IMG/VR virus record: IMGVR_UViG_3300005282_000008
Span: 1-64,000 of that record
Source: a virus
Lineage: Duplodnaviria; Caudoviricetes
Direction: 5' to 3' (one strand)
DNA: 64,000 bases
Of this stretch, positions 1-50,300 are shown in pieces (positions within the stretch are counted from its first letter, which is position 1; every line of letters begins with the position of its first letter). Below the pieces are notes generated by a model. That model was not told where the DNA came from. It saw only the letters and a list, made by a program, of their open reading frames with translations, and ran no database searches. The position numbers and the translations under genes were made by a program.

Positions 1-139
1 AAGTAATTTTTGTTTATACATCAATTATACGCTTATAATCTATTATAAACTACCTAACGAATCTAAACATTCGAAATAAAGATTACCTATTAGCACTAAG
101 CTAGATTGTCTAAAGACAACTTACTAATCTAATATAAAA

Positions 140-184
140 CAGATATATAAGTTTTAACACATTCTCAGACTATCTGCATTGTCT
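140..184 (-). ncRNA. small H-type pseudoknot motif, copy with long loop 3
   Basis: Minus strand AGAC-AAUG-CAGAUA-GUCU-(21 nt containing UUAAAAC)-UAUCUG; S1 AGAC/GUCU, S2 CAGAUA/UAUCUG; same layout as four other copies. Confidence 0.5.
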
Positions 185-193
185 TACTGGTGT

Positions 194-360
194 ACTTGAT
201 TTTATAGCCCGCACGATTATTTATTCATTAACTCTCCATGATGAGCACCACACGTATTTTAAGTAACCATCTACTTTAATGTAGACATGAATTACTCCAT
301 GGAATTACGTCTGAATGTGAATAAATTTACGCCCCACAAGTTTGTTATTTTCTAATGGTT
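194..360 (-). ncRNA. hatchet ribozyme-like element with ~90-nt insertion in P4
   Basis: UAACAAA-CUUG-UGGGGCG...CGUGCGGGC-UAUAAAAU-CAAGU follows the hatchet core; P2 ACUUG/CAAGU and P3 GCG/CGU co-vary with the 2460 copy; P4 AUUUAUUCA/UGAAUAAAU; P1 is weak. Confidence 0.7.
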
Positions 361-429
361 GTTATAAATCAGTGGCATATCCTACTTTCACAAGTAAGAT
401 ATGTCTAATAGTAGTATTAACCTGGATAT

Positions 430-834
430 TTACTTCTTAGGCGTCGCAATGCTCGCGACTGCCTTTTCAATAGAATCATCCCTAATGGCCTGTACTCCTT
501 TCTGTGCATAAGTTGCTAATACTATACCGTCATAATATACTTTATTAGAGTTATATTCACTAACGATTGCAACTTTGCTGGCATCCTCCCCGGTTTTCAT
601 GAGAATTGCCATAAATGCCATATCTGGTATACTATAATAAGTATCCAAACATTGTCGTTCCTGTAACTCATTAGCACGTTCTTGTAAACGCGACACTCTT
701 GCTACAGAATCCTGCTTAATAATCGTATCAGTCTTTTCAACTGGTACTTCTTTCTTGTCCCACCAATAGTGATCACAAGAACTCAACGAAATTATGGTCA
801 AAAGACCACAAATCAAAACAAGTAACTTTTTCAT
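430..834 (-). CDS. putative lipoprotein
   Basis: MKK + hydrophobic stretch + LSSC lipobox. Confidence 0.7.
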   Translation of the reverse strand: MKKLLVLICGLLTIISLSSCDHYWWDKKEVPVEKTDTIIKQDSVARVSRLQERANELQERQCLDTYYSIPDMAFMAILMKTGEDASKVAIVSEYNSNKVYYDGIVLATYAQKGVQAIRDDSIEKAVASIATPKK

Positions 835-850
835 TTTTGATAAATGTTAA

Positions 851-1366
851 TTAATAAATAGATATACTTATATCTGAAAGATTACATTGTAATTCACGTC
901 GCATCACGTCTTGCCATTTAATTCGAAGTTTTTGTACATCATCTAAAGACGAATCTTCCTTAAACTTATTTTTTGGAAATTCATATTTAAATGAATAATA
1001 AGACGATGTTTCGTTTATTAATTGCATAGAATCTACTATATCCTTTGCTTCTTTTAAACCTAATCCAGAAACATATTTAAATGCTTTTACTATTTGTAGT
1101 TTTGCATGACAAATATCTCCTGAAAGTTTAAAAGTGAATCCTTTTACGTTGCTTAGAACAAATGTTCTAAGTTTAGGGATCTCTACTGATACGTCTTCTT
1201 TTTTTGTATCTTGAATTATTTCTGTTAGAAAATCTAGAGCAATAAGTGTAACTACAAACTTTTGTACAGAACCAATAGCGCCATCACTTACTGCTACTTT
1301 ATCAACGAGATAATGTACATCTTCAATTTTAACAACTTTCCCAACTAATTCTGATGGATTTTTCAT
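851..1366 (-). CDS. protein with ribosomal protein bL12 (L7/L12) C-terminal domain
   Basis: AKLQIVKAFKYVSGLGLKEAKDIVDS matches the bL12 CTD signature KI.VIK..R..TGLGLKEAKDLVE. Confidence 0.8.
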   Translation of the reverse strand: MKNPSELVGKVVKIEDVHYLVDKVAVSDGAIGSVQKFVVTLIALDFLTEIIQDTKKEDVSVEIPKLRTFVLSNVKGFTFKLSGDICHAKLQIVKAFKYVSGLGLKEAKDIVDSMQLINETSSYYSFKYEFPKNKFKEDSSLDDVQKLRIKWQDVMRRELQCNLSDISISIY

Positions 1367-1378
1367 TTTGATATGAAT

Positions 1379-1591
1379 TTAAATTAATAACGTATAAACA
1401 AAAAAGTTTATAATGATAGATAAGCCTAAACCCAAACCTACAGTAATAGCATATACTATCATTTTACATTTACCAAATGCTTTATTAGCAATATAATAAA
1501 CTAATAGATAGCATAATACACTAATTACTGCAAGTAATAAAAGCATTCCACTACTTGGTGCAGGAGTAGACGCGAATGTAACTGTGTCCAT
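1379..1591 (-). CDS. small membrane protein
   Basis: Two hydrophobic segments; tightly packed with neighbours. Confidence 0.6.
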   Translation of the reverse strand: MDTVTFASTPAPSSGMLLLLAVISVLCYLLVYYIANKAFGKCKMIVYAITVGLGLGLSIIINFFVYTLLI

Positions 1592-1600
1592 TTTTTCTGA

Positions 1601-1876
1601 TTAATCTTTTTGACATGTTCCTATAATTATTGGTAAAACGTTTTCAAATATTAACCAATTTTGTATTTTGTTAACATTTGTTAGATTCTTTATCTCCACT
1701 TTAGTCTTTATAGATACTGTAATATGCTGCTTCTTTAAAGCTTGCAATATATTACCAATATCAAAAGTATTATTACTACCTATCACAATTTTATTATGAT
1801 CTATACTAATAATTGGAAATTCACATAAACCAAAGGTTTTGTTTCCAATTTTTATATAGGCATTACAAACTGACAT
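1601..1876 (-). CDS. hypothetical protein
   Basis: ORF packed in the minus-strand operon. Confidence 0.6.
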   Translation of the reverse strand: MSVCNAYIKIGNKTFGLCEFPIISIDHNKIVIGSNNTFDIGNILQALKKQHITVSIKTKVEIKNLTNVNKIQNWLIFENVLPIIIGTCQKD

Positions 1877-1878
1877 AG

Positions 1879-2088
1879 TTATTCACCGATAAGATTGTAA
1901 TAAACACTATCTATAGTTGTTTGTAAGGCATCTATAGCATTTTCAACATGATCAAGTTCTTTGATCAATCCAATTGATGGATGTGTTTCTCTAAGCTTGT
2001 CAATACATTCACTTTGTTTAGTAACCATATTATCAATTTCAATTAAACCCTTAATAAGGGTAAGTACTTCATCTAAATCTTTTTTCAT
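1879..2088 (-). CDS. hypothetical helical protein
   Basis: ATG ORF with AT-rich leader, abuts the next gene. Confidence 0.6.
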   Translation of the reverse strand: MKKDLDEVLTLIKGLIEIDNMVTKQSECIDKLRETHPSIGLIKELDHVENAIDALQTTIDSVYYNLIGE

Positions 2089-2236
2089 ATATTTTATTGA
2101 TTAAAATTTCAATTTAAGTTTTATTTCAAATATTCTCAACTGGCAGTTATAGTTGATAGATTTGCGGTTAAAACTTCAAGTGCAGTGTATTAAACATGAC
2201 TTTGTAAAAACCATTTCATCTGGCAGGACGAAACAA

Positions 2237-2310
2237 GTGCGCATACCTGAATCGAACAGGTGTACTATTATTCGCCAAAACAATAGGTTCTTCCACTAAA
2301 CTAATGCGCT
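2237..2310 (-). tRNA. tRNA-like element (possibly degenerate tRNA-Gln UUG)
   Basis: Acceptor GCGCAU/AUGCGC, D arm GUUU-AGUGGAA-GAAC, T arm ACCUG-UUCGAUU-CAGGU; anticodon arm longer than canonical; no CCA. Confidence 0.55.
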
Positions 2311-2315
2311 TTCCA

Positions 2316-2340
2316 GATAGATTTAAGACATATCAGGTCT
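2316..2340 (-). ncRNA. small H-type pseudoknot motif
   Basis: AGAC-CU-GAUA-U-GUCU-UAAAUC-UAUC. Confidence 0.65.
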
Positions 2341-2459
2341 ATGCTAACCATAATAGAGACAATAGGAGTCGGAACATCCTATAATTTAGCCAAGGTTTGT
2401 TATGGCTTCACGAGTTTTAATTGGCGTTTTGTATACCTTGTATACACACAATCTCCAAT

Positions 2460-2540
2460 ACATGATTTTAATGTCTGCACTAATACTTACTTATAGTAAG
2501 ATATAAGCCCCACATGCTTGTTACTGATTCTCACAGTTGT
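2460..2540 (-). ncRNA. hatchet self-cleaving ribozyme
   Basis: ACUGUGAGAAUCAGUAACAAGCAUGUGGGGCUUAUAUCUUAC-UAUAA-GUAAGUAUUAGUGCAGACAUUAAAAUCAUGU; very close to the hatchet sequence as I recall it, with P1-P4 all formable. Confidence 0.92.
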
Positions 2541-2543
2541 ACA

Positions 2544-2571
2544 GGATAGTTTATAGACTTATCCCAGGTCT
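2544..2571 (-). ncRNA. small H-type pseudoknot motif
   Basis: AGAC-CUG-GGAUA-A-GUCU-AUAAAC-UAUCC. Confidence 0.7.
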
Positions 2572-2648
2572 CAAAGTAATACCAAAACCACATTTAGTTA
2601 TATTTAACACTACTTTGTAGTTTTGGTTACTTTGTTCTTAGTTTTTGT

Positions 2649-2677
2649 TGGCGATTTTATAGACTGCCATTTTGTCT
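2649..2677 (-). ncRNA. small H-type pseudoknot motif
   Basis: AGAC-AAAA-UGGC-A-GUCU-AUAAAAUC-GCCA. Confidence 0.65.
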
Positions 2678-2772
2678 CAAATAACTCTTGCTGAGCTACA
2701 TCCCGTTCATTGGGTTGCCTAGCTTGTTACTAGGGGCCTTCTGCAAATCTAGCAGCTGCTCTCATTATTTAA
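2678..2772 (-). ncRNA. twister-like ribozyme variant with extra helices
   Basis: 5' UAAUG, hairpin CCUAG-UAACAAG-CUAGG, 3' GAGUUA (T1-like UAAC/GUUA); extra stems GAGC/GCUC, CUGC/GCAG, CCC/GGG. Confidence 0.5.
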
Positions 2773-3031
2773 TTTTTGTATACTCTATGATAACCCATAG
2801 ATAAGCTTACTGCTCTAGTATACTTTAGAGAAGACCAACTATTCTAATTAAAAATGAATAGGTTCTATTTATAACAAGATTGTGTCTTTTCATCTTTGTT
2901 ATATCCATTTCTCTTTAAGGTTACACTGATCTAATGGAAAGATCACCCTTACTACGTAGATTATAATAGTACTATTTATGTATTACAATTCGTTTTGTGT
3001 ATAAACTTTTCATACTTAAATAATCTATTAT

Positions 3032-3091
3032 TATTGTTGACTCTGCATTCAACAGGCTTGTCACTGTGTATTCGCGCTGCATTAAACAATA
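3032..3091 (-). ncRNA. twister self-cleaving ribozyme (P1 type)
   Basis: UAUUGUU-UAA-UGC-AGC...ACAG-UGACAAGC-CUGU...GCA-GAGUC-AACAAUA; P1, P2, P4, T1 (UGAC/GUCA) and T2 (GC/GC) all formable. Confidence 0.9.
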
Positions 3092-3132
3092 TTATAGTAG
3101 ACGCAAGGCTTGGTTACCCTTGTTTGACCGTA

Positions 3133-3417
3133 TTAATCCGGTTGACGATTATAAGTAAGCCATTTATCATAGATATTTTTCCAGAATTCAAAACCTTCAT
3201 TTCTAATTTCTGTTTCTTTCCATATAAATGAAACATTAAGAATATGAATGTCAGCATCTAAGATTATCTTTAATAAGACATCTGCGCCAATTTTTTTGGC
3301 ATGATCATAAACATTTTCCTTATATCTATCCCAAACTTTTTCTTGTTTCATAAATTCAATGAAATCATTTGGTAATTGTCTAAGAAGTTGTCTTTCTTTT
3401 AGTTCTGTAGGACTCAT
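3133..3417 (-). CDS. hypothetical protein, paralog of 4160..4444
   Basis: Shared F.W..T.....G..FW..I.DKW C-terminal motif. Confidence 0.7.
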   Translation of the reverse strand: MSPTELKERQLLRQLPNDFIEFMKQEKVWDRYKENVYDHAKKIGADVLLKIILDADIHILNVSFIWKETEIRNEGFEFWKNIYDKWLTYNRQPD

Positions 3418-3422
3418 TTTAT

Positions 3423-3852
3423 TTATGAATTGAATTTATTTTTATAGTCAATTATTAACTGATTATCTCTTAGAAAATCAGAACCAAGTATACCAATTAT
3501 TTTTATTCCTAATGCTAAGTTTAAATTCTGCATAGATATTGTTTTAAACTATATATGTAATACTATCTACTTTTACATTTATTGTAGAAGTTTGATATTC
3601 TAAGTTATAATTAATACTTGCAAAAGCTTTTGTATTATTTGGAGTATAATGCCCAATACTATTTAGATATTCAATTGATAACCAAGATGAATTACTTCCG
3701 GTATCTATTAAAAAATTACCTCGTTCTAGATGCACAATTGGTAAAGAAGATTTCTCTATAAATGTCATATTATTTAAAGTTGTTAATTCTAAACTATGAC
3801 TATTACAAGAAGTTACTAGAGCAACTAGTAATAATAAAATAAATTGTTTCAT
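3423..3852 (-). CDS. lipoprotein retropepsin-like aspartyl protease (split by 1-nt insertion near 3551)
   Basis: Lipobox VTSC and FLIDTGS catalytic motif; the GILGSDFL motif continues in another frame to a stop at 3423; span 430 nt = 143 codons + 1. Confidence 0.75.
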
Positions 3853-3877
3853 TTTGATGATGAATTAATTGTTACTT

Positions 3878-3903
3878 AGCAGTTTTATGTCATGCTTAGG
3901 ACA
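3878..3903 (-). ncRNA. small H-type pseudoknot motif
   Basis: UGUC-CUA-AGCA-U-GACA-UAAAAC-UGCU; S1 co-varies with the AGAC/GUCU copies. Confidence 0.7.
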
Positions 3904-3933
3904 AGTCCACTTTATATAAAATGGGCTAGAAAC

Positions 3934-4167
3934 TTATTTTTGAACAATTATTTTATCAATCTTTGTTCTAGTATTTTTATCCCAATTATCGATCATTTTA
4001 GTTAAATCAATAATAGCAAGATCTATATTAGTTTTTTCAACTGTATCATGCACTCTATCATAAGCGTTAGTATGTGAATTCCTAATCGTTTTAAGATTAG
4101 CTATAATACCTAAAATACGCATCTTATTATAGTTACGCATTCTTGCCATGTCTTGTTTTCTACTCAT
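3934..4167 (-). CDS. hypothetical protein
   Basis: ATG ORF overlapping the upstream gene end. Confidence 0.65.
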   Translation of the reverse strand: MSRKQDMARMRNYNKMRILGIIANLKTIRNSHTNAYDRVHDTVEKTNIDLAIIDLTKMIDNWDKNTRTKIDKIIVQK

Positions 4168-4444
4168 GATTAAATTCTTTTAGCCATTTGTCATGAACAT
4201 CATTCCAAAAATCATAACGTCTTCCAGATGTCTCTGGTGTATTTGACCAACTAAATGCATATACAATTGCCCATTCTGTGGTTAGATTATAAATTCTGCA
4301 TTCTGCATCAGCTGAACTTACTTCTCTAAGACGTTTTGTCATATTGTTGATAAACGCACATAATGCTTTTTCTTTCTTTAAAAACTTAATTAGTTTTTCT
4401 GGCATAAGGTAACGCAACTGTTTTTTACTTATCTTTGTTTCCAT
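4160..4444 (-). CDS. hypothetical protein, paralog of 3133..3417
   Basis: FSWSNTPE...YDFWNDVHDKW motif. Confidence 0.7.
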   Translation of the reverse strand: METKISKKQLRYLMPEKLIKFLKKEKALCAFINNMTKRLREVSSADAECRIYNLTTEWAIVYAFSWSNTPETSGRRYDFWNDVHDKWLKEFNHE

Positions 4445-4445
4445 A

Positions 4446-4667
4446 CTATTTGTGTTTTAAGTATAAAATAGTCATGATAATACCATAACCTGATACAATT
4501 AGAAAACACAATGCTTCTGGTAGATTCCAAGCAAAACGAGGTTGTCTAGTTGTAATACCAAAATGATTTAAAGTTGAGAAGATACAACCAAATGCGATTC
4601 CTATATTTAATACAGTAGCAATACACATAAAGAATGCTAATAGCCAAATTTTAATTTCTTTTTTCAT
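4446..4667 (-). CDS. small membrane protein
   Basis: Two hydrophobic segments. Confidence 0.6.
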   Translation of the reverse strand: MKKEIKIWLLAFFMCIATVLNIGIAFGCIFSTLNHFGITTRQPRFAWNLPEALCFLIVSGYGIIMTILYLKHK

Positions 4668-26906: not shown

Positions 26907-29900
26907 ATGATTAAGAATAACCAATACGTTGTAGATAAATTATATACTGATATAGTAACTACTACTAATGCAGATGGTACTGTAAATAATTATTATACTG
27001 GTGGATATTATGATGGTGGATATTATGATGGTGGTACTACTAACATAGGTAGTGGATTAACTACTGCACAATTAGATAAACTAAATAGTATTCAGTATGG
27101 CGCTGAAGTAAATCAATTTGCATTTAGTTTTATTAATGTTAATGGTTCTACTTCTACGTTATCTGCAATAAATAAAACAGACACCATTGTTATTGAAGGG
27201 GTTTCACCAATCGTTACTACAATAGTAGATGGTAAATTACAGATATCAATTAGTACTAGTGATCCAACTACAGGTATTGGTTTAGCTAATTTAAAAGATG
27301 TTCTTATAACTAATCCACAAAATAATGATAGTTTAATATACAATAGTGGTAAATGGATTAATTCATCGACTGGTAGTGGTACTAATCCAATAGAACATTT
27401 ATTCTATGATTCAGTAAATAATAAATTATGGACGAATGTACCTTTTTATTCTACTGGAGAAATCTCAGCATATGGTATAGGTAATGGAACTGGTGGTGGA
27501 GGTGGTACTGGTGTAAGTTCCTTATACCAGTTAACTGATGTTGCTAAAGATGATGATAATAATCCAACGGGAGTTTTAAATGCTGCTGATGAGGCAGTAC
27601 TTAAATATAATATGGCAACTAGTCATTGGGAGGGTTGGTATATAAGTGATTTATTAGTACATACCAATCGTGCTCAACTTGATGTTATTAATCAAGATAA
27701 TATAGATGTATTATCAAGATTAACATATGACGCAGTTCACGGTTGTATTAGATCTATTGTAGGATTACAATCTACTGGAGAAATAACGGCTTATACAACT
27801 GGAGATGGTACTGGTGGTGGTACTGGAAGTGCTACAAGTTTAAGTGAACTTACTGATGTTATAGATACTTTAAATCCCATTAATGGTGATGTACTATATT
27901 ATGATAATGTAACAACTAAATGGATTAATAAAGCATCTTCTAGTTTACAAACAGATTTAACTGGTTATGCTACTGAAACATACGTTACTACTAAAGTAAA
28001 CGACCTTATTAATGGTGCACCAGCTGCTTATGATACTCTTAAAGAGATAGCAGATGTTCTTCAGACTAATATAAACTCAATTGGTGATATTATAACTACC
28101 CTTGGAACAAAATGGACACAAGATAATACAAAAATTACTAATTGGGATTCTGCATACACTCATTCATTAATAACTGGAGATTCTACTATACATCATATTC
28201 ATACTAATAAATCATTATTAGATTTATTATCACAAGAGAATATAGATGTATTATCACATCTTACTTATGATGAAGTAAATAATAAAGTTAAAGTAGACAT
28301 TAGTCTTTATTCTACTGATGAGATTACTGCATATAGTACTGGATCTGATTCTAGTGGATCAGGAAGTGTATTAGAATTATCACAATTAACTGACATTGTT
28401 GATGGATGGACTCCATTGAATGCTGATATACTTTATTATGACAGTACTTTAGGTAAATGGAAAAATGTTGCGTCATCTACATTAAGAACTGACTTATCAG
28501 GATATTCAACAGAAGTATTTGTAACTAATATAACAAATACTAAATGGACTCAAGACAATAGTAAGATAACCAATTGGGATTTGGCATATACTAATAATCA
28601 TACACATTCTAATAAAACAGTACTAGATGGAATAATTAGTACAGATATAACTAATTGGAATAATAAAGAAACTTCTTTAGGTAATCCTACTACTAGTGGT
28701 TATTTATTATCATCTACCGTATCTGGAGTAAGAAACTGGGTTGCACCTTATTCACACCCTGCTTACTCTAGTTATAATGTAGGTGGAACTAGAAACTTTA
28801 TTACTTCATTTACTTCAGATACACTTGGTCATATAACTAGTATTACTAGTAGTGCAATGATAAAGAATGATATTGAAACATTATTAACTGGTGATTCAAT
28901 AACGTCACATTATCATGATTCTAGATATTATAAGAAAGGAGAATTATTTGAATTAAAAGGTACTGGTACAATTGAAGATCCTTATAAGATAGAAGCAAAA
29001 TATAACTTCTATGGATTAGGTGAAGTTAGTGCGTATGGTGTAGGCTCTGGAGGATCAGGAGGAGGATTAATCCAAACAGTCTATTCCTATGGTGATTTAG
29101 GAGGATCTTTTTCTGATACCATCCTTACAGATACATTTAATGCATATACAATTAATAAGATTAATGCTGATTTAGGTACAAGAATTTCTAGTTTAGAAAG
29201 TGGATCTGCATTATCAGTAACAACTACTGGTTCTGGAAATGCAATAACTAGTTTATCAAAGACTGGCACTATAATAACTGCAACTCTTGGTGGTACATTT
29301 AGTTTAAGTTCTCATATACATAATCTTTCAACACTTACAAATGACGCAGGGTTTATTTATTCGAACGATGCTAGACTTTCAGACGCTCGTACTGCTTCTG
29401 ATGTATACAGTTGGGCTAAGGCTTCTGTTAAACCTGCTTATATATTTAGTGAAATTGGTAGTTTACCAACAACGTTAGGTGGTTATGGAATTACTGATAG
29501 CGTAAGGTTTTTAGGTAATATAGGAACAAGTGCTAATCCGGTCTTTCTAGATAAAAATGTTCAATTTGGTTGGAATAGAACAGATGGTTCTGGAGAATTT
29601 GACATAATTATTAAGAATGGTACTCAAGCAGTTTATTTAAGTGGTTTTACATGGGATGGTACAACGCTTACTAAAAAATATCAAATTGATTCTAATGGAA
29701 TTGTTGTAAATAATAATACTGTTTGGCATACAGGTAATTTAACTCCTTCCAATTATCTTCCACTTGCAGGTGGTACTATTAGTGGTAAACTAATAGTTCA
29801 ATCATCAACGTATGCACCAATTCAATTTTTAAATAATGATTATCCAGGTAATTCAGGTTTACTTTTAATGGGTGGTGCAAATGATTTGGTTATTAGAAAT

Positions 29901-32900
29901 TTAATTGGAACTAGTACATATGATTTAAGATTTAATCAATCATCATTACGATATAATAATTATACTGTATATCATTCAGGTAATTCTAATTTAGGTACTA
30001 TTGATTGGAATGCTAAAGCATTAACTCTTGGTGGTAAACTTACATTCAATGCGGACTACTCACCTTCAATAGATACCATTAACAGTACAACTGCATTAAC
30101 ATTTGGTATTGGTGGAGTTGGTAAAATTGCATTATCAACTGTGAATGAATTTAGACCATTTTCTACACAAAATAATGTAATTGCACTAGGTTCTACAATT
30201 GCACGTTGGAGCAATATATATTCGGTTAATGGTAATTTTAGTGGTGATCTTACAACAAATGGAATAATTAGATCATCAGCAAATGATTTAAAATTATATT
30301 CTTCTAGTGCTTATTTATTACGATTCGTTCAAGCAACTGCTGGTTGGACTGATGCTGTAACTACATCATTTATTCAAACTGGTGATGCTACTAATTTAGC
30401 ATTAACTGCTGCTAATGGTAGTGTTTTAAATAGAGTTCAAATTAGCACAGGTAGTTTACAAATTGGAAATATTAGTTATAATACTTTTACTGTACCTGCA
30501 TATCAATTTGAAGTATTAGGTACAAGTAGGTTTAGCGATAATAGTTTATTCAATGGATATTCTTTAAGTATTCAAAATGAAACAGGAAATCGTTATATTT
30601 TTAGTCGCACTGCTTCACAGAAAATAGGGTTTTGGACAGGCGGTGATTCTGCAATTGCATCTAATGTAGATATGAAATTTAAAACAGGACATGCATTTGA
30701 TGATGTTACTTATGGTACTGAAAAAATGCGGTTAACTACTGGTGGAAATTTACTAATTGGAATTACAACTGATTCAGGTTATAAATTAGATGTTGCAGGG
30801 CCTGGTAGATTCATAGGCTTGTTAAATGCTGACAGTGGTATTCAGATTGGTTCAGCAAGACTCTTATATGATGCTACAAATAATGCTCTATATGTTCAAA
30901 AATCAGATGGTACTTCTGCTAACTTTTATGCCACTGGGGAAGTAAGTGCTTATGGTACTGGTACTGGAACAACTGGAGGTGGTGGCATAATACAAACAGT
31001 TTATTCATATGGTAATTTAGGTGGATCTTATTTGGACACAGATTTAACAAATACTTTTAATGCTTATACTATTGATAAATTAGCAACAAGAATTAATTCT
31101 TTAGAAGGTGGTTCCGCATTAACATTTAACACCACAGGTGCTGGTAATGCAATTACAAGTATTAGTAAGACTGGTACAACAGTTACTTCTGTTTTAGGTA
31201 GTACTTTTAGTTTAGATGGGCATACGCATAATATTATAACCAATGACTCGGTAAGTTTATTACTTTCAAATGGTAGTATGTATTATACATATGGGCATCA
31301 ATTTTATACTAGACATATTACTGGTATAAACACAACTAGTGATGGAACTTCTGGTACTGATTCAGATTTATATTTAAATTATGGTAATACTACAGGCAAA
31401 ATTAATTTAGGTTCAATTGGTAGTTATTATATATCAACTGATGGAGGTTATTATAGTGGCAATGTCTACGCATCATATAGATTATGGACTACTTCACATC
31501 CTTATGATTGGTATATTAGTTCTGTTCACGATGGTACATATTTTCAAATACAAGCAAAATCTGTTGATAATACTTTTTTACCTGTTAGTGTTAACCACGC
31601 TTATAATGCAGGTAATTCAGACACATTAGATGGTTATCATATGTGTTCAAATAATAGTAATAATGGTATTACTTGGGGATATATTCCATGTGTTAAACCA
31701 GATGGTGTAATGGAAGTTGGTAAATATATTGATTTTCACGAAGCATCAAATGATGGAATTGATTACAATGTTAGATTATATTCATCTGCAAATAATCTTT
31801 ATTTAAATAGCAATACAATATGGCATTCTGGTAATAGTAATTTAAGTACTGTTGATTGGAAATCAAGAAATAACTACACTAAATCTATACAATTTTACCA
31901 TCCTGATAATGAAACAGTTAGAGGTACATTTGGATATATAAGTAGTACAGTTTTTGGTTCTGGATATGGTTTACTATTAAATTTAGATACTATACCTGCA
32001 GGATTTAAGAACTTTGCAATTTATGGTGCTGAAAATGTAACTATTCAAGGTGCTATTCATTTTAATAGCACATTAGATGTAGCAGATAACGTTACTTTTT
32101 TGAATGGTATATATGCTCAAAAATCAGATGCAACTTGTTATAATGCTTTAAATCTTTATAATACTTATGCATATGGTGACTCTAACAAAGCAGAAACAAG
32201 AATTAATTTAGGTAAAATAGAAGGAGGTACAACTTATGAACCAATGGGCGCTATTGGAGCATCACCTGTAATTAATCTTGATTCAAATCATGGAAGTTTA
32301 TACTTTTATACAAGGACTAGTCAAGCATTAACAGAGAAAGCAAGAATATTATCAAGTGGTAATTTACTAGTCGGTACAACTACAGATGCAGGTTATAAAC
32401 TAGATGTTAACGGTGCTGGTAGGTTTACAGGAAATGTTACTGCTCCTACATTTTTAGGATCTTTAAGTGGTAATGCTGATTCAGCTACTAAATTAGCAAC
32501 AGTTCGTACTATATCTGTAACAGGTGTTGTTACTGGTTCTGGTTCATTTGATGGTTCTGGAAATTTAGCTATTGCTACTTCTGTAGCTGCTAATAGTGTT
32601 ACTCTTGGAACTAATACAGTAGGAAATTATGCACTTAGTGTAGGAGTTTCAGGAAGTGGTTTATCAATAACAGGAGCTGCTGGAGAAGGAATTGATTTTA
32701 TTGTAAACTCAAATGCAACAAACTTAAATACTGCTTCTACACTTGTATTTAGAGATGCAAGTGGAAATTTTAGTGCAGGTACTATAACAGCAGCTTTATC
32801 TGGGAATGCTAGTACTGCAACTAGTTTATTAAATAGTAGAACACTTTGGGGGCAATCATTTAATGGTTCTGCTAATATCAGTGGTGCTTTATCTTCTGTT

Positions 32901-34061
32901 ACTACAATAACAATGAATGGTGCTCTAAGTGGTGGTACAACTGCTTCATTTAGTTCTTATATTACTGCCGATAGATTTTATACTGGTTATGATGCGGCTG
33001 TTTCTAATTCGTTCAGTTGTTCTAATTGGTTTAGAAGTAATGGACAGACCGGATGGATTAATAGTACTTATGGGGGCGGTATCTATATGCTAGATTCTAC
33101 TTATGTACAAATATATGGAAGTAAAGCTTTTAAGGTTACTTCAACGGCTAACGATTCTATTAATACAGCAGGTGGTATTCAGATTGGAAGTGCTCAGTTG
33201 ATTTATGATGCTGCTAACAACGCAATATATGTCCGTAAGTCGGACGGCTCTGCAGCTAATTTTTATGCTACTGGTGAGGTAAGTGCTTATGGAATGGGTG
33301 GTGTAAGTGGCACTAAGATGGACGATCTAATATTTGCTAATAGTGGAACTACTACCAGACAAATACAGTTCAATATGGGTGATAACGATTACGGTCGTAT
33401 TGCTTGTGGAGCTGCTGCTTTAAATGCTGGTTGGCTTGAAATAGCTACGGCAGATGATGGTACTGAGCCTATTTATGTTCGTCAATATTCGGGTGCATTT
33501 GGTACAGTTGTTAATCAACTAACGCTATTAGATTCTTACGGGAATACTGCTATGACTGGTTCGTTGAATATTGGTTCAAATATATTTAAGCAACATGATA
33601 CTGCTGCATTTAATCTAACTTTATATAATACTTCTGGTGGCACTAGGAGTAAAATATCACTATCAGACAGTACTGTTAGCATTACGGGAGCTATTACATC
33701 TACAGGCTCAGGAACATTTAATGGTGGTTCTTTTAGTTCACTAAGATCTTTAAAGAATGTTCATGAAGACTGGAATGGTAATGCTTTGAATGAAATTTCT
33801 AAAGTAAAAGTAAGATCTTTCAACTATAAATCAGAACCAATTATAAATAAAACATTAGGTTTTATAATAGATGAGATACCAGATAGTATATCAGAATATG
33901 TATTATTTGGTAAAGAGAAAGATTCTATAAATCTATATACATTACACGCTTTAAGTTTCTTAGCACATCAACAGACTAAAACTAGATTAGAAGAACTTGA
34001 AGAAGAGGTAATTGATTTAAAACAAAAAATAAACGAATTGGAAAATAAACAAAATGGCTGA
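26907..34061 (+). CDS. long modular tail fibre with C-terminal peptidase S74-like chaperone
   Basis: 2384 aa, G/S/T-rich; repeated (T/G)GE(I/V)(S/T)AY and L..L.DV modules; GAPAAYDTLKEIA; SSLRSLKN...FNYK...GFIIDE plus terminal coiled coil. Confidence 0.85.
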   Translation: MIKNNQYVVDKLYTDIVTTTNADGTVNNYYTGGYYDGGYYDGGTTNIGSGLTTAQLDKLNSIQYGAEVNQFAFSFINVNGSTSTLSAINKTDTIVIEGVSPIVTTIVDGKLQISISTSDPTTGIGLANLKDVLITNPQNNDSLIYNSGKWINSSTGSGTNPIEHLFYDSVNNKLWTNVPFYSTGEISAYGIGNGTGGGGGTGVSSLYQLTDVAKDDDNNPTGVLNAADEAVLKYNMATSHWEGWYISDLLVHTNRAQLDVINQDNIDVLSRLTYDAVHGCIRSIVGLQSTGEITAYTTGDGTGGGTGSATSLSELTDVIDTLNPINGDVLYYDNVTTKWINKASSSLQTDLTGYATETYVTTKVNDLINGAPAAYDTLKEIADVLQTNINSIGDIITTLGTKWTQDNTKITNWDSAYTHSLITGDSTIHHIHTNKSLLDLLSQENIDVLSHLTYDEVNNKVKVDISLYSTDEITAYSTGSDSSGSGSVLELSQLTDIVDGWTPLNADILYYDSTLGKWKNVASSTLRTDLSGYSTEVFVTNITNTKWTQDNSKITNWDLAYTNNHTHSNKTVLDGIISTDITNWNNKETSLGNPTTSGYLLSSTVSGVRNWVAPYSHPAYSSYNVGGTRNFITSFTSDTLGHITSITSSAMIKNDIETLLTGDSITSHYHDSRYYKKGELFELKGTGTIEDPYKIEAKYNFYGLGEVSAYGVGSGGSGGGLIQTVYSYGDLGGSFSDTILTDTFNAYTINKINADLGTRISSLESGSALSVTTTGSGNAITSLSKTGTIITATLGGTFSLSSHIHNLSTLTNDAGFIYSNDARLSDARTASDVYSWAKASVKPAYIFSEIGSLPTTLGGYGITDSVRFLGNIGTSANPVFLDKNVQFGWNRTDGSGEFDIIIKNGTQAVYLSGFTWDGTTLTKKYQIDSNGIVVNNNTVWHTGNLTPSNYLPLAGGTISGKLIVQSSTYAPIQFLNNDYPGNSGLLLMGGANDLVIRNLIGTSTYDLRFNQSSLRYNNYTVYHSGNSNLGTIDWNAKALTLGGKLTFNADYSPSIDTINSTTALTFGIGGVGKIALSTVNEFRPFSTQNNVIALGSTIARWSNIYSVNGNFSGDLTTNGIIRSSANDLKLYSSSAYLLRFVQATAGWTDAVTTSFIQTGDATNLALTAANGSVLNRVQISTGSLQIGNISYNTFTVPAYQFEVLGTSRFSDNSLFNGYSLSIQNETGNRYIFSRTASQKIGFWTGGDSAIASNVDMKFKTGHAFDDVTYGTEKMRLTTGGNLLIGITTDSGYKLDVAGPGRFIGLLNADSGIQIGSARLLYDATNNALYVQKSDGTSANFYATGEVSAYGTGTGTTGGGGIIQTVYSYGNLGGSYLDTDLTNTFNAYTIDKLATRINSLEGGSALTFNTTGAGNAITSISKTGTTVTSVLGSTFSLDGHTHNIITNDSVSLLLSNGSMYYTYGHQFYTRHITGINTTSDGTSGTDSDLYLNYGNTTGKINLGSIGSYYISTDGGYYSGNVYASYRLWTTSHPYDWYISSVHDGTYFQIQAKSVDNTFLPVSVNHAYNAGNSDTLDGYHMCSNNSNNGITWGYIPCVKPDGVMEVGKYIDFHEASNDGIDYNVRLYSSANNLYLNSNTIWHSGNSNLSTVDWKSRNNYTKSIQFYHPDNETVRGTFGYISSTVFGSGYGLLLNLDTIPAGFKNFAIYGAENVTIQGAIHFNSTLDVADNVTFLNGIYAQKSDATCYNALNLYNTYAYGDSNKAETRINLGKIEGGTTYEPMGAIGASPVINLDSNHGSLYFYTRTSQALTEKARILSSGNLLVGTTTDAGYKLDVNGAGRFTGNVTAPTFLGSLSGNADSATKLATVRTISVTGVVTGSGSFDGSGNLAIATSVAANSVTLGTNTVGNYALSVGVSGSGLSITGAAGEGIDFIVNSNATNLNTASTLVFRDASGNFSAGTITAALSGNASTATSLLNSRTLWGQSFNGSANISGALSSVTTITMNGALSGGTTASFSSYITADRFYTGYDAAVSNSFSCSNWFRSNGQTGWINSTYGGGIYMLDSTYVQIYGSKAFKVTSTANDSINTAGGIQIGSAQLIYDAANNAIYVRKSDGSAANFYATGEVSAYGMGGVSGTKMDDLIFANSGTTTRQIQFNMGDNDYGRIACGAAALNAGWLEIATADDGTEPIYVRQYSGAFGTVVNQLTLLDSYGNTAMTGSLNIGSNIFKQHDTAAFNLTLYNTSGGTRSKISLSDSTVSITGAITSTGSGTFNGGSFSSLRSLKNVHEDWNGNALNEISKVKVRSFNYKSEPIINKTLGFIIDEIPDSISEYVLFGKEKDSINLYTLHALSFLAHQQTKTRLEELEEEVIDLKQKINELENKQNG

Positions 34062-47384: not shown

Positions 47385-50300
47385 ATGAATAATAATAATA
47401 CTTATAACCGTAGTAAAGCCAATCCCATAACGAGATTGGCTAACTCGTTTCCACCAGTTACTTTGGGTTTTGCAGATAGATCTAAACTTGAAGAACAAAA
47501 AATAAGTAGTGAATACGAAAAATTTAGACAGTCTCCTGCAGCTAGAACTACTGAACCTAGTATTGATAATTTCAATCCTAAAGAAGAAGCTACTACTAGA
47601 CCGGTAAATCTTAGTACCGGAGATGTTATAAAACCAGAAGATTCTGAATTCGTATCTAGTATAAAAGAAGGTAATTCTTTAGATAATGCTTGGTTTTCTA
47701 CAGATCGTGCAAATGCGATGTATAATCAAGAACAAGCACAAATATCTCAACAGAATAAGAATCTTAAGAATGGAACAATAATTCCAACGGTTCCTCCAGT
47801 TGCTTCTGTAAAACAGAGTAACCAATCATACAATGTATTACAATACTTTAAGGATGCGTGGAGAGCAAACCAGAATGGTAAAGATGAGACTGATATTTCA
47901 AGTAAGAATGGTGAAATTATATCAGATATTCTTCCAAAACTAAATGCTGCACAAACACAATTAGAATATGCTACGACTTCTCAAAAATATGATGATCAGA
48001 TTAATAGTGTAATTGCTAACAAAATTGCAGGAAAAGGCGTTGGTAATTGGGATTCCGAGATAGCAAGGTTAACTAAAGAAAAGAGTCTTGCACTAGGTGG
48101 TATAAGTATTAGAGATAAAGCAAGTGCTCAGTATGTTAAGGATTTAGTTACATGGGATAAGTATATACAAGACCCCTCTAGAGTAATAGGACAACTTAAA
48201 GCAGATATCGGAAATAGAACTGCGCAATATAATGATAAATTAAACGAGATTAAACAACTACAGGATGATATAAACGATCGTCCAAAGGTTAGCGATTATT
48301 ATTTAAATAAGGAAAAGAATGCAGGCTTTGGCTATACTAACATAGATGCATGGTTATATGGTATGCCACGTACATTGGGATCTTCTATGCAAACATGGAA
48401 ACAGCAAGGTGCAAACATGTTATATAACTTTGGTGCTAGTTTGGCTCAAAAAAGTTTAATGGAAGATATGGCATTATCTGTTTCCGCTGCAACTGGTGGT
48501 TCCGGATTATATGCTAAAGCTGCTATAATGGGATTAAGTACCGTTGGTATGGGTCTGAATTTAGAGACACAAGCGTTATCTAGACATTTAGAAACTGATG
48601 CAGAACTTTATACTAACTATAAAGATAGAATAAAGAAAGATGCTGCAGCAAGAGGTATAGACACCAACAAATTGATAAATGATGCAAAAGATAAATTAAA
48701 AAATTATGTAGATACCGATTCTAATATTTCTAAGAAACCAGAAATAACTGATGATGAGGCTATGGATTTTTTGCTTACTACTAATTTAAAAAGCGGTGAT
48801 ACTAAATTTGATGCATTGAAAGATGATGGTAGAAAAGGTTTACAATCTCTTAGAAATGTCAATTATGGTTTAAGTGCATCAGATATTGCAGAGAGTATTG
48901 CCTTTGTACCTTATCTTGGTACCGTACTTGGAAACTCTTATAAAGCACTTAAGACTACAGAAAAACTTGGGAAAGGTATTGCAAGAACTGAACAAGCTGT
49001 TGAAGCAGCAAAAGGATTTGCAAAAGCATTACCTACAGAGATTGCTGGTAAAATACTAAATAGTGCAGTAGTTAAAGGTGCTACAAAAACAATTGAAGAT
49101 CTTGCTGAAAAGACTGTACTAAAAGTTCCAAAACTTACTGAGTTTGCCGGAAAGGTAGCTGAGAAGGTTGCTGGCGCTGATGGTAAAACTTATGCAAAAT
49201 ACGTAAAAGGTATTGCAAAACGTGGGTTATTTGGTATGGCTTCTGAAGGTGGTGAAGAAGGTACACAACAAGAGAAAGGTTATAAGTATCAGAATGGTCT
49301 GTATGATGATAAGACCATGGGATTCTTTGATACCGTTTCTGATGTAGTTGGAGGTATGTTTAATGGCGCCAAAACTGCATTTGGATTGAGTGTTAATCCC
49401 GCATTAGATAATGATCAGGATTATCAACAAAGTGTTGTTGCTGGTGCAATGATGGGTGGTTTATTTAGTGCAGTTGGTGGTATTCAACCAACCATTGAAC
49501 TTAAGAATCAGATACAAACCAATCACATTATTCAGAATTATACAGTAGACCAATTAAAAGCTAAAGAGAATTTAACAAAAGCTAATTTATGGACAGATAA
49601 AGCATTGAAAGGTAAAGGTGAACAGGTTATTAGTACTCTAGATATGATGAAAGAGAATCTACCTGAAGGACTTACTTCCAATGACGTTGACAATATAAAG
49701 AAACAAGCAGAGTATACCATGAATTATGCTAGTTCACCTATTGCTAAAAAGTTAGCAAAGGAATCTGGTATAACATATGGTTCGCAAGACTATAAAACGA
49801 TAGTTGGGCTTGCTCTAGATTCATTTGATCAATTACAAAATGAAGTTGATGCCAATAAAGCAATTGATGCTAAATTGACAAGTACAAGAACATTCGGTGA
49901 AGGTGCATTGAAAGGTAATTTAGAGAATATTAGTAAATACACTGGTATTGATTCAAATTTATTATTACAACTACACAACCTTAACCAACACCAACAATCT
50001 TTAGTATCTTTGATTGATGAATTAAAGAATAGGAAGACAGTCATTGATGAAATGAATGCAGATAAAGACTTTTCTATGTCTTTAAATAGTGACAAGATTG
50101 GTGAATACGTTGATAGGCTTAATGAAAAGTTAATAGATGTAACAAATAATCGTAATTCTTTTATAAGTGAATTTACTTCACAAATGAAAGTTGATAAAAA
50201 TACTATTGAAACTGGTAAAAGTCAAAAACCATATACAGAAGAAGAACTAACTGATGTACTTAATAGTTTATCTACAGTAGGTGGATATAAACAGAATGAA

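Follow-up and report, generated by a model that had tools for sequence, protein, structure and literature searches.

What is the short structured element that recurs among the non-coding RNAs of this crAss-like phage, and what could it be doing there? The window analyzed here is 64,000 nucleotides long (positions 1 to 64,000 of IMG/VR record IMGVR_UViG_3300005282_000008), and an earlier note, made from its sequence alone, described five copies of a small pseudoknot with compensatory changes, placed beside ribozymes and a tRNA-like fold. The elements discussed below are all on the minus strand and are as follows.

3903 to 3878, minus: pseudoknot copy E; S1 UGUC/GACA, L1 CU(A), S2 AGCA/UGCU, linker UAAAAC
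3088 to 3035, minus: weak twister-P1-like match; RF03160, 37.9 bits, under the gathering score of 67.2
2677 to 2649, minus: pseudoknot copy D; S1 AGAC/GUCU, L1 AAAA, S2 UGGC/GCCA (4 bp, GC-rich), 8-nt linker
2648 to 2572, minus: stable 77-nt region between copies D and C, mainly one long hairpin; -22.7 kcal/mol, z -6.1
2571 to 2544, minus: pseudoknot copy C; S1 AGAC/GUCU, L1 CU(G), S2 GGAUA/UAUCC (5-6 bp), junction A, linker AUAAAC
2543 to 2460, minus: canonical hatchet ribozyme; Rfam RF02678, 80.3 bits
2340 to 2316, minus: pseudoknot copy B; S1 AGAC/GUCU, L1 CU, S2 GAUA/UAUC (4 bp), linker UAAAUC
2310 to 2237, minus: tRNA-Gln, anticodon UUG; ARAGORN, and Rfam tRNA at 36.5 bits
2230 to 2210, minus: possible weak copy F; S1 CGUC/GAUG, L1 CU, S2 GCCA/UGGU, linker only AAA
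359 to 194, minus: hatchet ribozyme with a long P4 insert; Rfam RF02678, 79 bits
184 to 140, minus: candidate copy A (doubtful); S1 AGAC/GUCU, 6-bp S2, 21-nt linker, 10-nt hairpin loop

The twister-P1-like match is the first element of the non-coding RNA array.

Copies of the motif in the window

The pairings claimed for the five copies are present at all five places on the minus strand, and the claim of a five-copy repeat is partly confirmed: copies B, C, D and E are genuine H-type pseudoknots of 25-29 bases, while copy A, with its 21-nt linker, is an outlier. Copy C is the nearest to the family consensus given below and copy D is a divergent variant, with AAAA in L1 where the others have CU. 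Copy A does not fit the family descriptor in spite of its pairings, was not recovered in searches with the family descriptors and gave no nested-folding signal (z +0.43). Copy F, which lies 6 nt past the 3' end of the tRNA-Gln, may be a chance match. In the complete 95-kb genome the only family-like copies are B to E.

A comparison with shuffled and plus-strand sequence had been suggested as a check, and its outcome depends on how the motif is defined. The generic layout has 6 matches on either strand of the window, which is not significant, and over 3.9 Mb it has 1019 matches in real sequence versus 626 in shuffles. The specific form AGAC-N6-12-GTCT-(N)-TAAA stands out, with 4 matches versus 0.17 expected and none of 100 shuffles reaching 4; copies B, C and D are three of these four matches.

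A family of phage pseudoknots

The family to which copies B to E belong is widespread among DNA phages and uncatalogued; its members are H-type RNA pseudoknots of ~27 nt with the consensus NNNC-CU-RRRYA-W-GNNN-WUAAAC-URYYY. The layout consists of a 4-bp S1 closed by C-G, L1 CU, a 5-bp S2 (RRRYA/URYYY), a one-base junction and L3 WUAAAC, usually followed by A. In unbiased collection scans for covariation, one stem was fixed and the other left free. With S2 fixed, S1 was fully paired in 87 of the 122 collection matches and had three of its four pairs in 32 more; with S1 fixed, S2 was fully paired in 82 of 105 matches versus 41.8 (maximum 51) with permuted partners. Pairing in the unique set reaches 90.5% for S1, which has ~29 different sequences and varies in all four pairs on both sides (slid controls, 22-47%), and 85.4% for S2, in which all five pairs vary on both sides. 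The fold and its compensatory changes are established by this covariation of both stems, and the strand, spacings and breadth of the family are likewise a matter of observation. The junction base is variable (U 109, A 78, C 17, G 4), and the loop bases CU and WUAAAC and the A at +1 are conserved across very different phages.

The carriers include a relative of Roseobacter phage CRP-6 and the crAss-like phage of this window, together with genomes and MAGs labelled Firmicutes, Bacteroidota, Proteobacteria and Patescibacteria. The motif is limited neither to Crassvirales nor to ribozyme neighborhoods. The earlier note recognized no named family in it, and no Rfam family, preQ1-I included, matches it.

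We considered whether the motif works chiefly as a repeat in the DNA, a recombination point at which gene or RNA cassettes are swapped, with the RNA fold secondary. Homology with contigs of related phages breaks exactly at motif edges, namely at 140/141 (candidate copy A), 2315/2316 (copy B), 2570/2571 and 3877/3878 (copy E), and copies within one genome tend toward a common S1. Breakpoints at element edges are, however, expected of any intergenic module, and the covariation of both stems, the strict co-orientation with genes and the fixed spacing to stops and tRNAs are constraints at the RNA level, so that we hold this explanation to be very improbable.

Position relative to genes, tRNAs and ribozymes

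All three types of position that the family occupies are on the coding strand: after stop codons, before tRNA 5' ends and before hatchet cleavage sites. Most are found just past ordinary stop codons in very diverse phages, where the distance from the stop codon to the start of S1 peaks at 5, 6 and 7 nt (29, 18 and 13 of 102 instances); the next start codon follows at widely varying distances (1-96 nt), and the opposite strand has no spacing pattern. The distance from the end of the motif to the tRNA 5' end is 3, 3, 4, 4, 4, 4, 4 and 5 nt in eight instances on seven contigs, and only one motif starts directly 3' of a tRNA. Before hatchets, the motif ends 0-3 nt from the cleavage site and replaces the P0 hairpin. 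The flank downstream of the motif is unstructured (its MFE equals that of shuffles), begins with the A at +1 in 63% of instances and has much U and little G, with at least 5 U in +1..+8 in 23% of instances versus 5% in a control window. Promoter-like sequences follow in several instances.

Of the four placements reported for the window, three are correct. Copy C directly adjoins the canonical hatchet, which cleaves at its own 5' end, immediately 3' of the copy, and the final C of copy C and the U at 2543 form the sole C-U step near the expected cleavage site. Copy B ends 5 nt upstream of the tRNA-like fold, which is a true tRNA-Gln, and copy A begins 9 nt 3' of the end of the insert-bearing hatchet. 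The placement of a copy just 3' of the twister-like element did not hold, as copy D is 358 nt away from a match that is itself weak. Copy E lies 30 nt past the stop of ORF 3934..4167, after a small hairpin, and 25 nt upstream of the ATG of ORF 3544..3852. The contig of one relative joins 2570 to 2652, with the intervening letters not known, and that relative may be without the 77-nt hairpin region.

Proximity to hatchet and twister-like elements, an association that lay behind earlier ribozyme discoveries, raises the question of whether the motif is itself a processing signal, one that cleaves itself as a minimal ribozyme or one that a host endonuclease recognizes. It is located at gene boundaries where other phages have ribozymes, and its A-rich linker has a string in common with the hatchet core. 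Against this, the motif is far smaller than the natural self-cleaving ribozymes that are known; no position is conserved in the manner of a cleavage dinucleotide, and in this window a second cut 0-5 nt from another cleavage site would be redundant. We therefore give a processing signal very little chance.

The pre-cleavage structure of hatchets bears on a further explanation. Across 88 unique hatchets a stable structure is found in the 40 nt 5' of the cleavage site (mean MFE -9.8 versus -3.2 in control windows), and it ends 1-5 nt from the site in 77 of them; this structure is the known P0 hairpin. P0 is present in ~90% of hatchets and dispensable for catalysis, and its role is not known (PMC4604424). 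The insert-bearing hatchet of this window has an ordinary P0 hairpin at 403 to 376 (-16.3 kcal/mol, z -5.3), and copy C occupies the P0 position of the canonical hatchet, as do L057/L100 and L062, the three pseudoknots having different S1 and S2 sequences. The motif could then be a folding insulator, a rigid and fast-folding bumper that prevents wrong pairing between upstream RNA and the element downstream, be it a ribozyme, a tRNA or a ribosome-binding site, which would generalize the function of P0. The immediate 5' position relative to structured RNAs (0-3 nt for hatchets, 3-5 nt for tRNAs) and the equivalent place of P0 in most hatchets fit such a role, but the hatchet is active in vitro without P0, a 27-nt knot sequesters itself alone, and in mRNA the knot is close to the upstream stop codon and not to the downstream start. 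We regard an insulator as improbable.

Comparison with known RNA structures

Among known structures, the plant-virus coremin xrRNA and the luteoviral frameshift pseudoknots come closest. When membership was tested, the motif proved to belong neither to these two groups nor to preQ1-I.

Coremin (xrRNA-C; beny-, cucumo- and other eukaryotic RNA viruses; Dilweg et al. 2019, 2023) shares with the phage motif a short C-G-closed hairpin with a pyrimidine first in the loop and a spacer UUAAAC followed by U, and it acts as a mechanical roadblock, a likeness that is predicted for the phage knot. Xrn1 and scanning ribosomes stall at coremin, which also stimulates -1 frameshifting, and its loop-spacer pseudoknot has been modelled on the luteoviral knots (PMC6546385, PMC10520033, PMC10321173). 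Its loop is YGAD or YGNNAD and its S2 has three pairs, partly non-canonical, whereas the loop of the phage motif is CU plus the 5-nt S2 strand and one base, and its S2 has five Watson-Crick pairs. The phage motif further differs in lacking the downstream hp2 hairpin, in its DNA phage carriers and many copies, in being anchored to stop codons, tRNAs and ribozymes, and in a presumed direction of protection that is the opposite.

Luteoviral -1 frameshift pseudoknots (BWYV, PLRV type) are likewise compact H-type knots with a 2-nt L1 beginning with C, a one-base junction and an A-rich L3 ending in AAAC, and in them too 5-7 nt separate the knot from the A-site codon of the ribosome. They follow a slippery heptamer, whereas the phage motif follows a stop codon, has no overlapping reading frame and occurs also in purely non-coding arrays, as in this window.

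These likenesses suggest a coremin-like 5'->3' roadblock against RNase J-type exonucleases, post-termination or read-through ribosomes or Rho, which would shield or insulate the downstream unit. The features that the motif has in common with coremin and its Watson-Crick variant (C-G-closed hairpin, pyrimidine first in the loop, UUAAAC(U) spacer and loop-spacer pseudoknot) speak for it. By the established geometry of frameshift signals, a start 5-7 nt past the stop would also put the knot where mRNA enters a terminating ribosome. However, where a hatchet or RNase P cuts 0-5 nt past the knot, the downstream RNA is severed from it and so cannot be protected by it; hp2, which coremin needs for Xrn1 resistance, is present in only 18 of 199 instances, with the flank no more stable than shuffles; and the knot keeps no tight spacing to the downstream start codon. 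A roadblock is unlikely in our estimation, while deserving some weight.

The preQ1-I aptamer (RF00522) resembles the motif in size, H-type topology and A-rich 3' tail, and the earlier description of a layout that recalls preQ1-I but belongs to no recognized family was borne out, with no preQ1 match in Rfam even for 81 nt at E <= 10. The motif could still be a binding site, for a small molecule as in a preQ1-I-like aptamer or for an RNA-binding protein of the phage or host, whose operator it would be, and the strong conservation of its loop bases across very different phages would suit this. The preQ1-I architecture has a longer loop that holds the ligand-pairing C; the motif has no counterpart of this multi-base loop between S2 and S1', only its single variable junction base, and no tie to queuosine genes. 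It is also present in many copies that precede unrelated genes, tRNAs and ribozymes, and the diversity of its carriers suggests that no one phage protein is common to them, so that a binding site seems to us quite improbable. A minimal ribozyme or aptamer, one of three functions proposed in the earlier note, is unlikely for these reasons of copy number and junction variability and also because the motif lies beside known cleavage sites and does not replace them.

Two further systems are relevant. The hatchet P0 (Weinberg 2015; Li 2015, PMC4604424) is, like the motif, without a fixed stem sequence, and the pseudoknots found in exactly its place are a few nt upstream of where the hatchet cleaves; descriptions of P0 show a plain hairpin, whereas the motif is a conserved pseudoknot found also far from any hatchet. 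The likeness of the A-rich tail to the hatchet 3' tail is real, and a 10-nt string is common to the single-stranded hatchet core and the coremin motif. The closest functional analogy would be with REP elements and the terminator or RNase III stem-loops of bacteria and T7, which are also multi-copy extragenic structures just past stops and which stabilize upstream mRNA. Such elements can stop 3' exonucleases and partition polycistronic RNAs. They are long lineage-specific hairpins, unlike the 27-nt knot with conserved loops in phages of many host phyla.

Proposed function

Of the three functions offered, which also included a protein-binding tag, we favor an exonuclease-blocking cap because it fits the positional evidence best. 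We tentatively propose that the motif is a compact 3'-boundary cap that comes to lie at the very 3' end of the upstream RNA, where it would block 3' exonucleases; both the blocking and the RNA ends are what we infer. The knot would be transcribed along with the genes and most likely act by itself, as a compact, mechanically stable structure at the 3' boundary of an RNA unit, serving both to mark this boundary and to protect it. The knot would be set behind a coding region as near as the terminating ribosome permits, or immediately 5' of a cut or end, be it a hatchet self-cleavage site, a U-tract or the point where RNase P cuts at the 5' end of a tRNA, and would therefore become the 3'-terminal structure of the upstream fragment after processing, leaving a single-stranded tail of 0-5 nt. 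PNPase, RNase II and RNase R need a longer tail to engage. In this window copy C would cap the RNA freed by hatchet self-cleavage, standing in for P0; copy B would cap the hatchet-containing RNA freed by RNase P at the tRNA-Gln, with a 5-nt 3' tail; copy E follows ORF 3934..4167; and copy D may be an internal or alternative boundary before the inserted hairpin module.

Several observations weigh against a cap. A 9-bp knot is small in comparison with hairpins that are known to halt PNPase or RNase II, and its stability would depend on presumed tertiary contacts. Coremin, the nearest characterized look-alike, blocks a 5'->3' enzyme and not a 3'->5' one. Most members lie between two ORFs with no known cleavage site after the knot, and the sharp 5-7-nt stop spacing could equally mean action on the terminating ribosome. 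An abundant RNA contig in the relatives extends 50-62 nt beyond candidate copy A, and what comes after copy D is not a known end but a structured RNA of 77 nt.

What this window adds to the picture of the family is the adjacency of the pseudoknot to a ribozyme and a tRNA.

Pseudoknot copies on the minus strand

The earlier note described five copies of a mini-pseudoknot, and the pairings it gave are present on the minus strand at all five sites: copies A (184->140), B (2340->2316), C (2571->2544), D (2677->2649) and E (3903->3878). The record containing them is a 95,193-nt virus contig whose large terminase is 71% identical to crAss-like phage terminases, for example cr6_1, and its minus strand carries genes and RNAs throughout the first 5 kb. 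The RNAs recognized in this part are:

2543->2460, minus strand, hatchet ribozyme (Rfam, 80.3 bits)
359->194, minus strand, second hatchet with a long insert (Rfam, 79 bits)
2310->2237, minus strand, tRNA-Gln(UUG) (Rfam / ARAGORN)
3088->3035, minus strand, twister-P1-like element (Rfam, below threshold)

The stretch 3130-2100 holds no minus-strand ORF of at least 40 aa and is an array of non-coding RNAs. The first stem, S1, is AGAC/GUCU in copies B, C and D, which differ in their second stem, S2, carry UAAA in their linkers and have a C-G closing pair; in copy E it is UGUC/GACA. Against the family consensus given below, C is nearly canonical; B and E deviate slightly from it, and D more strongly (first loop AAAA and a longer linker). 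Copy A has the S1 of B-D, but its hairpin loop is 10 nt long and its linker 21 nt. The proposal that all five copies are one motif holds for four of them, and in a scan of the whole genome only B-E resemble one another. The earlier note had also made the motif depend on the absence of equally good matches in plus-strand and shuffled sequence. The generic layout fails in this respect: it has 6 matches on each strand of the window and is nearly as frequent in shuffled DNA, so that alone it is no evidence. The sequence-specific form is significant, with 4 matches against 0.17 expected. A loosened scan added one weak candidate, copy F (2230->2210), 6 nt after tRNA-Gln.

Several other features of the genome were recorded. 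Between copies D and C lies a very stable 77-nt hairpin module (2572-2648, minus strand; -22.7 kcal/mol, z -6.1), which one relative may not have, because its contig joins 2570 to 2652. The 137 nt after tRNA-Gln (2100-2236, minus strand), with no ORF and no Rfam match, open with candidate F and have a CGAAAC-like string on the plus strand. Contigs of relatives, in small shares, served to place homology breakpoints and gave a weak hint of abundant non-coding RNA: in metatranscriptome contigs of related phages the word depth was 357-492 over 2774-3047 and 141-224, compared with 3-7 in neighbouring genes, a hint that stable RNAs are plentiful downstream of the first hatchet and in the interval from the twister-like element to copy D. 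Outside the window, at 92218-92518 (minus strand) of the record, are tRNA Tyr, with the unusual anticodon AUA, and tRNA Ile(GAU); just upstream of them is the 3' half of another tRNA-like sequence, and no knot copies stand beside these two tRNAs. Two long ORFs, of 5358 aa (47385-63461, plus strand) and 2384 aa (26907-34061), probably encode giant crAss-like virion or RNA polymerase-type proteins. Searches of the annotated phage collection for close relatives gave no megablast match with 1-4500, a blastn match to the hatchet core only with 2100-3200, and no relatives through the neighbouring 94-aa protein.

Covariation and distribution of the family

After inspecting the upstream regions of other hatchets, we turned to targeted scans of the viral collection; two loose patterns returned mostly chance matches, with S1 paired in 16/120 and 6/117. 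With S2 fixed and S1 left free there were 122 matches, S1 being fully complementary in 87 and forming three of its four pairs in 32 more, and about 29 different S1 sequences occur among unique family instances. With S1 fixed and S2 left free, S2 was fully paired in 82 of 105 matches, while permuted partners gave a mean of 41.8 and never more than 51. In these two unbiased sets 90.5% of S1 cells and 85.4% of S2 cells, respectively, are paired, and all four pairs of S1 and all five of S2 change on both sides; sliding the partners by 1-3 columns left only 16-56% paired.

The consensus of this compact H-type fold, hereafter the knot, is NNNC-CU-RRRYA-W-GNNN-WUAAAC-URYYY, usually followed by A. Of 63 distinct members, 57 close S1 with a C-G pair. 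The loop (CU, RRRYA and W) has 8 nt, its second base being U in 205 of 208 instances, and the junction is a single variable base (U 109, A 78, C 17, G 4). WUAAAC and the U after it are nearly invariant, and the bases that follow are not fixed and covary with the loop. A triplex is predicted, in which the C of the first loop, L1, would occupy the major groove of S2 and the AAA of the linker, L3, the minor groove of S1.

The knot family is uncatalogued. The earlier note did not recognise the motif as a named family, which agrees with our Rfam searches: the motif had no match in the window at either gathering or permissive thresholds, none in the 81 nt around a canonical copy, and none at 16 motif-bearing loci, where no further ribozymes adjoined it. 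Literature searches on phage pseudoknots, terminators and xrRNAs gave no description of the phage knot. Its carriers are very diverse and include, besides this crAss-like phage, a relative of Roseobacter phage CRP-6, in which the genes for ribonucleotide reductase and glutaredoxin flank the knot, and a 301-kb jumbo-sized contig. Some 30 further sites come from MAGs and bacterial genomes that belong to many phyla; these sites could be prophages or binned phage contigs.

The homology of relatives ends exactly at motif edges (140/141, 2315/2316, 2570/2571 and 3877/3878), which suggests, as a possible secondary role, a recombination site acting at the DNA level.

Placement at stop codons and tRNAs

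The knot is co-oriented with genes. Among 102 instances with an upstream ORF, the gap from the stop codon to S1 is 5, 6 or 7 nt in 29, 18 and 13 cases, respectively, whereas the next start codon is spread broadly over 1-96 nt, and the opposite strand shows no such pattern. An action of the knot on the terminating ribosome would account for the 5-7-nt spacing, but it leaves the non-coding contexts unaccounted for. At tRNAs the knot ends 3-5 nt before the 5' end in eight instances on seven contigs, copy B being 5 nt before that of tRNA-Gln; a start directly behind a tRNA occurs in a single instance. If the knot were a folding insulator, its nearness to ribozymes and tRNAs would be explained, though not its nearness to the upstream stop codon.

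The flank downstream of the knot is unstructured (MFE -1.04, compared with -0.86 for shuffles), with a hairpin of at least 4 bp within 3 nt downstream in only 18 of 199 instances. It is G-poor and U-rich, at least 5 U occurring in positions +1 to +8 in 23% of cases against 5% in the control window. Promoter-like sequences follow the knot at several loci. At some loci the knot and a U-tract are followed by a sequence containing GGTCGGGGGGTTACGG (L458, L497, L378, L292) or TTAATGCACCAT (L445, L369, L426, L423), both recurrent in unrelated contigs; they may represent phage promoters or some other conserved beginning of the unit that follows.

The knot in the place of hatchet P0

Cleavage by hatchet ribozymes falls between C(-1) and U(1), right at the 5' terminus of the ribozyme, and about 90% of hatchets have a hairpin just upstream, P0, without which catalysis proceeds (PMC4604424). 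Folding the 40 nt ahead of the site in 88 unique hatchets gave a mean of -9.8 kcal/mol, compared with -3.2 in control windows, and in 77 of them the upstream structure ends 1-5 nt before the cleavage site. In the window this place is occupied by copy C, which ends at 2544, the hatchet model starting at 2543. At copy C and at two other viral loci, L057/L100 and L062, 0-2 nt separate the end of the knot from the C-U step at the ribozyme's 5' edge, and the three differ in their S1 and S2 sequences. Nested folding gives these cases only -2.5 to -3.2 kcal/mol, as against the average of -9.8 for other P0s, and they stand out solely because nested folding is blind to knots; copy C is therefore P0 in pseudoknot form. 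The Rfam alignment of the 2543->2460 hatchet places U and A at the C(-1)/U(1) positions, so that the cut would fall at the sole C-U step, 2544|2543, or at most 3 nt beyond it. The two forms differ in that P0 of hatchets is described as a plain hairpin without sequence conservation and the knot is a pseudoknot with conserved loops.

Two observations concern the hatchets themselves. Many other crAss-like hatchets have, 20-40 nt before the ribozyme, a conserved P0 loop of the GUUCGUGAGAAUAG or AGUCUGUGAAGAUAG type (L010, L012, L013, L018, L024, L036, L041, L098 and others) that resembles the hatchet P1 loop UGAGAAU, and P0 may thus not be wholly free of sequence conservation. The 12-nt single-stranded hatchet core linking P3 to the 3' strand of P2 (consensus AGACGUUAAAAU) has the 10-nt string AGACGUUAAA in common with the plant-virus coremin motif and also resembles the S1'-linker part of the knot, a likeness that may reflect a common tertiary module or coincidence.

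Comparison with known RNA elements

The main rival reading is a 5'->3' roadblock of the coremin kind. Coremin needs a 5' hairpin of 3-5 bp closed by C-G (PMC6546385). The resemblance is real: both have the C-G closed hairpin, a pyrimidine first in the loop, a UUAAAC-U spacer, and a knot formed between loop and spacer on the model of luteoviral pseudoknots, and coremin stalls both Xrn1 and ribosomes. The coremin spacer is a conserved 10-nt string, GUUAAACUAC, with A16-A20 essential; in the knot WUAAAC-U is nearly invariant and the bases after it covary with the loop. The knot loop, however, does not fit the coremin consensus (YGAD or YGNNAD), and hp2, the second hairpin that coremin requires directly downstream for Xrn1 resistance, is absent. 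In addition, a knot that a hatchet or RNase P cut separates from the downstream RNA cannot protect it. This is the point at which the window is informative on the direction of protection.

The knot shares with luteoviral-type -1 frameshift pseudoknots the compact H-type fold, short L1 and A-rich L3, but these have an overlapping -1 frame and, 5-8 nt upstream, a slippery heptamer where the knot has a stop codon, and copies B-D lie in the non-coding array. The preQ1-I model (RF00522) had no match at E <= 10 in 1-4500 or in the 81 nt around a canonical copy; that aptamer has a multi-base S2-S1' loop with a ligand-pairing C and occurs as a single copy upstream of queuosine genes, unlike the knot with its one-base junction and multiple copies before unrelated genes, tRNAs and ribozymes. 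More generally, three features speak against an aptamer, protein operator or ribozyme, as the earlier note had suggested: the one-base junction varies, the element is spread in multiple copies, and such a role would be redundant beside neighbouring cleavage sites.

Other candidates were rejected. Copies B-E are not intrinsic (Rho-independent) terminators, no U-tract following any of them; a sigma-70, T4-late or phage-polymerase promoter would not be expected to show pseudoknot covariation in a dsDNA site, and half of the linkers are UUAAAC. Type III antitoxin repeats are tandem, which the copies are not; an anticodon-arm mimic does not fit in loop length or position 37; and half of a pistol ribozyme was dismissed for want of P2/P3 and of an Rfam match.

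Proposed function and significance

The exonuclease-blocking cap offered in the earlier note is the best supported interpretation, with its function predicted. It starts from the observed fold, strand, spacing and breadth of the knot, whose positions would all coincide with the 3' limit of an RNA unit: it would lie just outside the footprint of a ribosome on the stop codon, or immediately before a cut (ribozyme, RNase P) or an RNA end (U-tract). A cut would leave it as the last structure at the 3' end of the upstream fragment, followed by 0-5 nt. This is too short a single-stranded tail for PNPase, RNase II or RNase R to engage, and the same job is done elsewhere by hairpins (P0, terminators, REP elements and T7 RNase III sites). 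It is because of these boundary positions, the short tail and the hairpins doing the same job that we read the knot as a compact 3' cap and roadblock, to which we give slightly less than an even chance; that it blocks exonucleases and marks real RNA ends is what we infer. New for the knot are the P0 equivalence and the tRNA-leader spacing, and the argument for the direction of protection that results from the two.

A wider proposal, which we consider rather unlikely as a whole, is that the knot is a universal host-independent module that makes or protects the 3' ends of phage RNAs, replacing hairpins as hatchet P0 (and so giving P0 a function), serving as a leader cap at RNase P sites and, with a U-tract, as a hairpin-less intrinsic terminator, and perhaps sharing a tertiary building block (G-N-N-N then UUAAA) with the coremin xrRNA of eukaryotic RNA viruses and the hatchet catalytic core.

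Phage annotation pipelines currently miss the family because it is absent from Rfam. If the reading is true, one 27-nt RNA fold would commonly punctuate the transcripts of phages from many host phyla and would set the ends of stable RNA fragments, whether made by a ribozyme, RNase P, a terminator or decay. It would offer synthetic biology a small portable RNA-stabilising part, give a reason for the catalysis-dispensable structure found in about 90% of hatchets, and provide a function for the numerous ribozyme and tRNA arrays of gut crAss-like phages.
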